Below are positions 24,944 to 25,123 of a stretch of 46,495 nucleotides of DNA, in pieces (the stretch's first letter is position 1; the number at the start of each line of letters is the position of its first letter). Location of the stretch: the NCBI GenBank assembly GCA_042568285.1, contig JBHPIX010000003.1, positions 1 through 46,495 on the forward strand, in the 5' to 3' direction. This DNA comes from Patescibacteria group bacterium. GTDB taxonomy: Bacteria > Patescibacteriota > Patescibacteriia > JAZDEU01. Below the pieces are notes generated by a model. It made no database searches and was not told where the DNA came from. It saw nothing but the letters and a program-made list of their open reading frames with translations. A program made the position numbers and the translations under genes.

Positions 24944-25123
24944 TTGACAAATATTATTCTAAAGAATATACTATAAACAATATGAATATATCTCAAGGGA
25001 CATTTATTATAAGCATTATCATTGGGGCTATTATTAGCCTGAATTTTAATTATCCCTTGAGACAACAATAGTAAAGAAAAAAAACAAAAAGTAAAAATGT
25101 CGTCTCAAAGGAGGCGATTTTTT
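24944..25123 (+). promoter_or_regulatory. Isoleucine leader-peptide attenuator upstream of cimA
   Basis: TTGACA 24944-24949, 17 nt, TATACT 24967-24972. Leader ORF 24982-25071 encodes MNISQGTFIISIIIGAIISLNFNYPLRQQ, with 8 Ile. Segment 1 TCTCAAGGGA (24991-25000) pairs perfectly with segment 2 TCCCTTGAGA (25053-25062). Segment 2 also pairs at 9 of 10 positions with GTCTCAAAGG (25102-25111). Terminator TCGTCTC-aaag-GAGGCGA plus T6 at 25100-25123. Confidence 0.75.

Follow-up and report, generated by a model that had tools for sequence, protein, structure and literature searches.

What is the function of a short, isoleucine-rich open reading frame (ORF) that lies, with a promoter and a terminator of its own, directly upstream of cimA, the citramalate synthase gene, in contig JBHPIX010000003.1? 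The window, i.e. the whole stretch of DNA analysed, is 46,495 nucleotides (nt) long, and a first-pass annotation of it had proposed an attenuator at this site. The data below indicate that the element most likely functions as an isoleucine (Ile)-specific leader-peptide (ribosome-mediated) transcription attenuator of cimA, as judged by its arrangement, its conservation in two related contigs (L081 and L098), the modelled behaviour of its RNA, and three sibling leaders in the same window. The statements of the first-pass annotation on promoter, leader, pairings, terminator and cimA agree with the window base for base.

Organisation of the element upstream of cimA

The -35 box (24944–24949) and -10 box (24967–24972) of the promoter are separated by a 17-nt spacer, and the leader ATG at 24982 starts 9 nt past the -10 box, as annotated. 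No Shine-Dalgarno sequence precedes this ATG; such a sequence is present for cimA and leuA, and none of the leaders described here has one. The spacing between -10 box and ATG is 6–13 nt among the leader copies. Because the -10 box sits only a few nt before the ATG and there is no Shine-Dalgarno sequence, the Ile leader mRNA is probably leaderless or near-leaderless. Transcription of the window copy is predicted to start at about A24979, leaving a 5' untranslated region (UTR) of 0–3 nt (about 3 nt), and in L081, where TATACT ends 6 nt before the ATG, the predicted +1 position is the A of the start codon.

The leader ORF (Table 1) includes the eight Ile codons that had been reported, at positions 3, 9, 10, 12–14, 17 and 18 of 29, and seven of these fall inside 10 codons. 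Across the three copies known, the peptide has 8–11 Ile, no Val and 1–2 Leu residues.

Three mutually exclusive pairings, 1:2, 2:3 and 3:4, can be drawn for the leader RNA, and a predicted intrinsic terminator is located between the leader ORF and cimA, as is characteristic of this class of attenuator. Segment 1, TCTCAAGGGA, is the exact reverse complement of TCCCTTGAGA at 25053–25062, which is segment 2 as a 10-mer (UCCCUUGAGA). The alternative pairing, between GTCTCAAAGG (25102–25111) and CCCTTGAGAC (25054–25063), was also found as claimed, at nine of 10 positions, and lengthening of segment 2 by one base gives pairing with segment 3 at 10 of 11 positions. The terminator GTCGTCTC/GAGGCGAT overlaps the T6 run at 25118–25123, and its core, TCGTCTC/GAGGCGA with T6, is present and overlapped by segment 3 as described. 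The stem includes two G-U pairs, one within the core and one closing the stem. Folding of the leader RNA gave a free energy of -39.6 kcal/mol (z = -5.1), and none of 200 shuffled sequences was as stable. The minimum-energy structure further includes an inner hairpin in the run of Ile codons, followed by a U-rich stretch. The core of this hairpin was flagged as terminator-like, an equivalent hairpin is found in L081, and it may serve as a pause hairpin.

The gene that follows begins at 25228, in accordance with the claim that the leader directly precedes a citramalate synthase gene. Its product scores 724.6 bits against the NCBIfam model TIGR00977 (cutoff 450), 2-isopropylmalate synthase models all remain below their own cutoffs, and proteins named as citramalate synthases in Geobacter and Thermodesulfovibrio share 56–61% identity with it. 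Citramalate synthase catalyses the entry step of the route from pyruvate via 2-oxobutanoate to Ile, established for Geobacter and Leptospira. The gene downstream of the Ile run thus belongs to the synthesis of the amino acid that the run is made of, as in other attenuators of this class.

Rfam searches revealed no family at gathering score anywhere in the window, T-box included, and at E values up to 10 no T-box, amino-acid leader family or riboswitch over 19800–25300. Hence, nothing of those kinds is available to do the job instead.

Table 1. Coordinates of the Ile leader element, the gene it precedes and the sibling leaders of the window.
Feature	Sequence or composition	Coordinates	Strand	Remarks
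Promoter, sigma-70 type	TTGACA-17-TATACT	24944..24972	+	11 of 12 consensus matches
Ile leader ORF	MNISQGTFIISIIIGAIISLNFNYPLRQQ, then stop	24982..25071	+	29 codons
Segment 1 (anti-antiterminator arm)	UCUCAAGGGA	24991..25000	+	1:2 duplex -17.1 kcal/mol
Inner hairpin in Ile-codon run, then U-rich stretch		25015..25050	+	core 25025-25040; in minimum-energy structure
Segment 2	UCCCUUGAGAC	25053..25063	+	pairs with segment 1 or segment 3; ends 6 nt before stop
Segment 3 (antiterminator partner of segment 2)	GUCUCAAAGGA	25102..25112	+	overlaps terminator 5' arm and loop
Intrinsic terminator	GUCGUCUC-AAAG-GAGGCGAU + U6	25099..25123	+	predicted hairpin 25099-25118
cimA, citramalate synthase, putative regulated gene	581 amino acids	25228..26973	+	TIGR00977 equivalog
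Leu leader, candidate attenuator	MKIIATKNLALNLGLLLLALLLLPYGIAKLSLLRN; 14 Leu of 35	19929..20125	+	ORF 19967-20074; before leuA 20213-21751
Val leader, candidate attenuator	MNISQTKTNMLVVVEVVVSNTIGFGLEQT; VVVEVVV	24142..24319	+	ORF 24180-24269; before orphan 91-residue ORF 24445-24720
Aromatic leader, candidate attenuator	MKQNFWSTNWFNFYFFFTGLGDREFCIE; 7 Phe, 2 Trp, 1 Tyr	23933..24111	-	ORF 24073-23987; before ADH synthase 23697-22849 and prephenate dehydratase (pheA) 22668-21829

In the mechanism proposed, transcription starts 0–3 nt before the leader AUG, and a ribosome would load on the 5' end of the RNA as it emerges. When Ile-tRNA is plentiful, the ribosome would reach the stop codon and cover segment 2; after its release, segment 1 would pair with segment 2. 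In both of these Ile-replete states segment 3 would be free, the 3:4 terminator with its U6 run should form, and RNA polymerase would halt before cimA, giving a predicted terminated transcript of about 145 nt. When Ile-tRNA is scarce, the ribosome would stall at an Ile codon (all are within codons 3–18) and mask segment 1 or part segments 1 and 2. Segment 2 would then pair with segment 3, no terminator would form, and transcription would read through into cimA. More citramalate synthase should in turn mean more flux from pyruvate through 2-oxobutanoate to Ile. The start site, leader translation, termination and Ile response in this scheme are inferred from the sequence elements, conservation and thermodynamic feasibility that were observed. 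No sequencing run was found to contain the stretch 24100–27000 of the window.

Conservation of the element and modelling of stalled ribosomes

The nearest relative of the window CimA among 5.8 billion proteins, P0002, is 61% identical and has the same C-terminal extension. This extension of about 50 residues (window 26818–26973) beyond the TIGR00977 match is common only to these two proteins (P0002 has 572 residues), and most relatives are of about 525–530 residues. The contig of P0002, L081, includes the same element directly upstream of cimA: a promoter TTGACA-17-TATACT, an ATG 6 nt downstream, the leader MNIHQGIIIISIIIAAIIISPHFNYPLRQK with 11 Ile, an A-rich spacer, and the terminator AUCGUCUCC-AAA-GGGAGGCGAU with U6. 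L098 was reached through LeuA at 79% identity and is syntenic with the window over 17.7–25.1 kb. Its element is 82% identical to that of the window, with the leader MNISQGIIIINIIIGAIIISLHFNYPLRQS, also with 11 Ile, and the terminator GUCGUCUC-AAGGG-GAGACGAU with U7. L081 and L098 were the only two related contigs found with the element. Between the window and L081, the DNA from promoter through leader to terminator is 83% identical and the leader peptide 76%, as compared with 66% for the cimA DNA and 50% at its third codon positions.

When the three leaders are compared by codon, the variation in three columns is limited to exchanges of ATT, ATC and ATA, all for Ile. Codons 7 and 8, for Thr and Phe in the window, are Ile codons in both relatives (T7I, F8I), and the sole indel is an in-frame insertion of ATC in the relatives. 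The last 10–11 sense codons are free of Ile in all three. The pattern is that expected of selection acting on translated Ile codons in a particular zone, and not of mere conservation of nucleotides.

Segment 2 is invariant in all three sequences, and the 1:2, 2:3 and 3:4 pairings can be drawn in each. The calculated energies of the 1:2 duplex are -17.1, -12.8 and -11.3 kcal/mol for the window, L098 and L081, respectively. The corresponding values for the 2:3 duplex are -15.7, -19.7 (10 perfect pairs) and -15.0 kcal/mol (with a 2-nt bulge), and those for the terminator hairpin -8.8, -9.3 and -12.2 kcal/mol. Changes in the terminator stem keep the pairing: a U-G pair of the window is U-A in L098, and in L081 a G-U pair is A-U and an extra C-G pair is formed by changes in both arms. 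The distance from the stop codon to the T-run is 46 nt in the window and L098 and 48 nt in L081.

The effect of a stalled ribosome was modelled by treating the ribosome as a block whose leading edge is 11–17 nt past the A-site codon and across which the RNA behind it cannot pair. Leading-edge offsets of +11, +14 and +17 nt were used; the boundary between the two states moves by about one codon between them, and the switch holds throughout. The free RNA of the window has a modelled terminator probability of 0.97. With a 14-nt leading edge, this probability is at most 0.11 when the A site is at codons 2–20, and from codon 21 up to the stop it does not fall below 0.93. For RNA free of ribosomes, or once the A site has reached about codon 21, the range is 0.85–0.97. 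In L098 the probability is at most 0.03 for a stall at Ile codons and at least 0.96 towards the stop. All Ile codons thus fall in the modelled antitermination zone, and none falls where a stall predicts termination. Only 6 nt separate the end of segment 2 from the stop codon, so that a terminating ribosome would cover this segment, and in the models of both the window and L098 a stall at an Ile codon leaves segment 2 free. As modelled, these relationships of segments, stop and codons are those of the classical trp/his/leu scheme.

Beyond the close relatives the leader was not encountered. The search of species-representative genomes with CimA gave orthologs at no more than 58% identity, and an Ile-rich upstream mini-ORF was found at none of 80 such distant cimA loci (Geobacter, Nitrospirota, Desulfobacterota and others), where cimA usually follows an aspartate kinase gene in an operon. 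The Ile leader is therefore specific to this lineage and not to cimA generally. Accordingly, of the expectation that cimA orthologs should carry the mini-ORF, the part that concerns close relatives held in the only one found (L081), and the part that concerns cimA at large did not. Metagenomes were scanned in a collection that included neither the window nor L081: a peptide-pattern scan with the two-leader alignment matched 600 stretches, none of which was confirmed as an Ile leader, and a degenerate DNA scan for the FNYPLRQ/segment 2 core gave 14 hits, all due to chance and inside unrelated ORFs.

Sibling leaders and alternative explanations

A scan of the window for a promoter, an ATG within 4–12 nt, a short ORF and a T-run revealed four elements, i.e. 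the Ile leader and the three siblings in Table 1. In the four leaders the -10 box is 9–10 nt before the ATG (10 nt in the three siblings), the ORF has 28–35 codons, and the T-run lies 43–47 nt past the stop. The Leu, Val and aromatic siblings are conserved in L098 at 93, 91 and 92%, respectively, with the same downstream genes. The amino acid of the run matches the downstream pathway in two of the three siblings, and in three of the four leaders when Ile-cimA is counted. The recurrence of this match, Leu with leuA and aromatic with ADH synthase/pheA, supports the view of the first-pass annotation that cimA here serves Ile synthesis. The first 15 nt of the Val and Ile leaders are identical (ATGAATATATCTCAA, encoding MNISQ), which suggests a common origin of the two.

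The orphan ORF that follows the Val leader cannot be recognised as a valine gene. Neither Pfam nor NCBIfam gave a match to it, its AlphaFold model is poor (pLDDT 55), and one true homolog was found among 1.8 billion representatives, in L098 (60% identity; leader 7208–7297, ORF 7558–7819). For leuA, the relatives whose LeuA is about 60% identical (contigs L099–L101) have leuA-leuCD-leuB-asd operons. There is no room for a leader in L100 and L101, where leuA overlaps the preceding gene, and in L099 leuA is at the contig end.

The element might in principle be a chance ORF with chance hairpins, set in AT-rich intergenic DNA beside an ordinary terminator. ATT, ATA and ATC are common triplets at about 30% GC, and an ORF with at least eight Ile arose in 3% of 20,000 dinucleotide-preserving shuffles of the region upstream of cimA. 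The raw count of eight Ile is thus only mildly unusual in AT-rich DNA. However, only two of the 20,000 shuffles produced an ORF with seven or more Ile in a stretch of 10 codons, and the Ile leader ranks first among 420 small ATG ORFs of the window for local Ile density. Its significance thus derives from the clustering of Ile, the structure and the conservation, and not from the raw number of Ile codons. The strongly negative fold score, the reading frame kept through an indel, the identity of 82–83% across contigs whose coding DNA is at 66–79%, and three siblings of the same architecture all speak against a chance origin, the probability of which is negligible; the conservation data effectively refute it. 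The claim that the match of leader bias and pathway is hard to ascribe to chance was borne out by the clustering, the conservation and the siblings. A 64-residue ORF at 29231–29425 (+), MEYIIIGIAIMIILLILILREVK..., ties with the Ile leader for local Ile density. It resembles an ordinary small membrane protein and not a leader, and served as a contrast.

That ORF is also a reminder that the mini-ORF could be a gene in its own right, for a small hydrophobic peptide of the membrane, either accessory or like a type I toxin, in which the richness in Ile would reflect a transmembrane helix. FIISIIIGAIISL is indeed hydrophobic and helix-like, the peptide is conserved in three contigs, and the unit has a strong promoter and a terminator of its own. 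Against this, the enriched amino acid differs from leader to leader, and in the Leu, Ile and aromatic leaders it agrees with the downstream gene. Hydrophobic sequences are found in the Ile and Leu leaders, but the Val sibling has a Glu inside its Val run and the aromatic sibling is polar, and neither is membrane-like. The existence of these parallel leaders speaks most strongly against the Ile ORF as a mere hydrophobic membrane peptide. The changes in the relatives, moreover, add Ile (T7I, F8I and one inserted Ile) and not generic hydrophobic residues, and the invariant C-terminal NYPLRQ corresponds to RNA segment 2, whose alternative pairings are conserved. No antisense RNA partner is evident, nor does any antisense promoter-terminator unit stand out at the locus. 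A membrane peptide is accordingly very improbable.

Several observations weigh against classical attenuation itself. Most of the Ile codons are 3' of segment 1, so that direct masking of this segment is expected only at codons 3, 9 and 10. In a stricter model, in which only the footprint of the ribosome is blocked, the 1:2 helix re-forms around ribosomes at codons 12–18, and the switch works only for stalls at codons 2–11, i.e. for Ile codons 3, 9 and 10. The other Ile codons depend on the assumption, a reasonable one, that the helix cannot close around a stalled ribosome. At equilibrium, the L081 RNA keeps its terminator at a probability of 0.5–0.9 even under a stall, so that switching in L081 would require the 2:3 pairing to be trapped kinetically. 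The 1:2 helix falls from 10 pairs to eight and six in the relatives, and the loss is uncompensated. The L098 contig stops about 140 nt after the terminator, before any cimA, and about 131 nt (L098 8503–8638) are inserted between its conserved promoter and the leader ATG. The insertion has ATGAAT at both ends and leaves a truncated mini-ORF (MNSFKISV, then a stop) at the promoter, and the full leader has neither a nearby promoter nor a Shine-Dalgarno sequence. The L098 copy may be impaired, or expressed in some other way. Only three copies of the element are known, all of one lineage. Furthermore, lookalike attenuators of Streptomyces coelicolor ilvB and leuA did not behave classically under mutation, according to the summary given in PMC1262725. 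Some doubt remains because of the weak equilibrium switch in L081, the small number of copies and the Streptomyces precedent. As regards the origin of the L098 insertion, a repeated mobile element was considered and rejected, BLAST having given no convincing second copy.

An alternative is an attenuator-like element in which the Ile codons are not the signal, such as a constitutive damper, an element under protein or Rho/Nus control, or a trans-acting RNA or peptide like rnTrpL and peTrpL of Sinorhizobium. Besides the Streptomyces cases and the L081 model, which is not switch-like, the tolerance of L098 for an insertion that parts the promoter from the leader ATG is in line with this, and trans-acting attenuator RNAs and peptides are described as documented in PMC7298713 and PMC7968998. 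An element of this type would not be expected to keep and expand an Ile run with synonymous turnover of the Ile codons, to have every Ile codon in the predicted antitermination zone and none in the termination zone, or to be accompanied by parallel leaders with different runs, three of the four before a matching biosynthetic gene. A function in trans, in addition, could coexist with attenuation and would not replace it. Regulation without classical Ile sensing is thus considered unlikely, and Ile-specific attenuation of cimA is retained as the preferred interpretation.

Known attenuators, host lineage and other features of the window

The ilvGMEDA (ilvL) and ilvBN (ivbL) leaders of Escherichia coli and Salmonella are multivalent, with mixed Ile/Val/Leu codons, and precede ilv operons; both a 5' UTR and a Shine-Dalgarno sequence are present. 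Shared with the Ile leader are a short ORF rich in branched-chain codons, 1:2/2:3/3:4 hairpins with a terminator, a stop codon placed for a terminating ribosome to cover segment 2, and a branched-chain target gene. Unlike them, the Ile leader is Ile-only, has no Shine-Dalgarno sequence, starts 6–9 nt after the -10 box and would control a monocistronic cimA, with separate Leu and Val leaders nearby, and there is no sequence similarity. This arrangement of one amino acid per leader (Leu, Val, Ile, aromatic) contrasts with the multivalent enterobacterial ilv leaders. It follows the same logic as the proteobacterial trp, his, leu, thr and pheA leaders, with one amino acid, one codon run and one terminator switch, and the Leu and aromatic siblings would be functional analogues of the leu and pheA leaders. 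No homology to Trp_leader, His_leader, Leu_leader, Thr_leader or Phe_leader was found, however, and the regulatory codons here lie mainly between segments 1 and 2 and not within segment 1. The Ile T-box of Firmicutes senses the charging of tRNA-Ile and controls terminator readthrough before Ile genes, as the Ile leader would, judged by its sequence. The T-box, however, binds tRNA directly without translation and is a fold of 200–300 nt, whereas the Ile leader element is about 145 nt long and includes an ORF.

Leaderless leader peptides have precedents in Deinococcus deserti, for which 14 were predicted from mapped start sites (PMC4007540), and in Corynebacterium glutamicum, where one is discussed for the ilvBNC attenuator (PMC11857589). 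Those leaders are rich in specific amino acids, precede genes for tRNA synthetases or for the synthesis of amino acids, and have a terminator/antiterminator after them. In common with them, the Ile leader would begin at or a few nt from the 5' end of the transcript, a position deduced here from promoter spacing, whereas start sites were mapped there. It differs from them in phylum and target gene. In the literature searched, no paper was found that links a leader peptide to cimA, or that ties leader peptides or citramalate synthesis to Patescibacteria.

The DnaK encoded in the window is 82–86% identical to proteins of metagenome-assembled genomes and of Candidatus Falkowbacteria bacterium RBG_13_39_14, and 73–80% identical to many proteins of Kuenen-, Uhr-, Buchanan- and Parcubacteria. 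This one marker places the host of the contig in the Patescibacteria/Candidate Phyla Radiation (CPR). To our knowledge, this radiation is generally regarded as auxotrophic and host-dependent, and genes for amino-acid biosynthesis are not expected in it. The window encodes leuA, cimA, prephenate dehydratase, an archaeal-type ADH synthase and purF (17755–23697 and 41098–42405 among the loci). Outside the small lineage, the nearest relatives of LeuA and CimA are at about 60% identity and in other phyla, and the genes may have been acquired by transfer. The amino-acid and purF gene loci adjoin genes for sulfhydrogenase-like beta and gamma subunits.

The balance is slightly in favour of a broader interpretation, in which four probably leaderless attenuators of a CPR bacterium, for Leu, Val, Ile and aromatic residues, form a coordinated set that includes the Ile leader. 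By the literature searched, these would be the first amino-acid-sensing stalling attenuators of the radiation, and the Ile leader the first Ile-only one on a citramalate synthase gene. If so, a member of a supposedly auxotrophic radiation makes branched-chain and aromatic amino acids and tunes their synthesis to the charging of its own tRNA. Conserved amino-acid-specific attenuators would argue for a real, regulated use of the biosynthetic genes in this lineage. The mechanism has been in textbooks since the trp operon and the understanding of attenuation is unchanged; the points of interest are the target gene, the assignment of one leader to each amino acid, and the apparent CPR host. The leader would also provide independent, regulation-based evidence that the TIGR00977 enzyme works in Ile synthesis, which helps in the annotation of an uncultured organism. 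As parts, the leaders are compact, about 180 nt from promoter to terminator.

Other features of the window were noted. Between the orphan 91-residue ORF and the Ile leader, at 24770–24912 (+), there is a small-RNA-like unit with a perfect TTGACA-16-TATAAT promoter followed by about 110 nt with two hairpins, the second of which is a strong terminator with U8 (minimum free energy -29.6 kcal/mol, z = -5.5). Rfam gave no match to this unit, which is not conserved in L098; there, an additional ORF of 127 residues follows the equivalent promoter.

At 14930–15019 (+), a tRNA-like gene lies antisense inside ORF 14333–15727, which encodes a GT4 glycosyltransferase with family matches restricted to residues 97–222 and 334–460. 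ARAGORN calls the sequence a tRNA-Ile of 89 nt with anticodon GAT, and Rfam gives only a sub-threshold match to tRNA-Sec (40.9 bits against a gathering score of 47, E 4e-7). The tRNA-like sequence folds with a D stem of 6 bp, a T stem of 4 bp and a long variable arm, and just upstream of it there is a TATAAT-like box. Judged by these traits, the molecule looks like a tRNA-Sec-like or 'allo-tRNA'-like species with an Ile anticodon.

Finally, the pattern of a short hairpin repeat, GTCATCCCG-(Y/R)..-CGGGAT, was matched 15 times, at 14 sites over 46 kb, as compared with none expected. The sites include 7238, 9531, 11293, 15733, 19808, 23734, 27061, 32723, 33171, 37497, 39610 and 45749, and the repeat is found in L098 at 6474–6504. 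Several copies are inside ORFs, e.g. in the C-terminal extension of murC and in a pgk/tpi-like ORF. The stem covaries (CGTGCTTGACACG, CGCACTTGATGCG and CGCGCTTGACGCG), and L081 carries a related GTCATTCC...GGAATGAC element.

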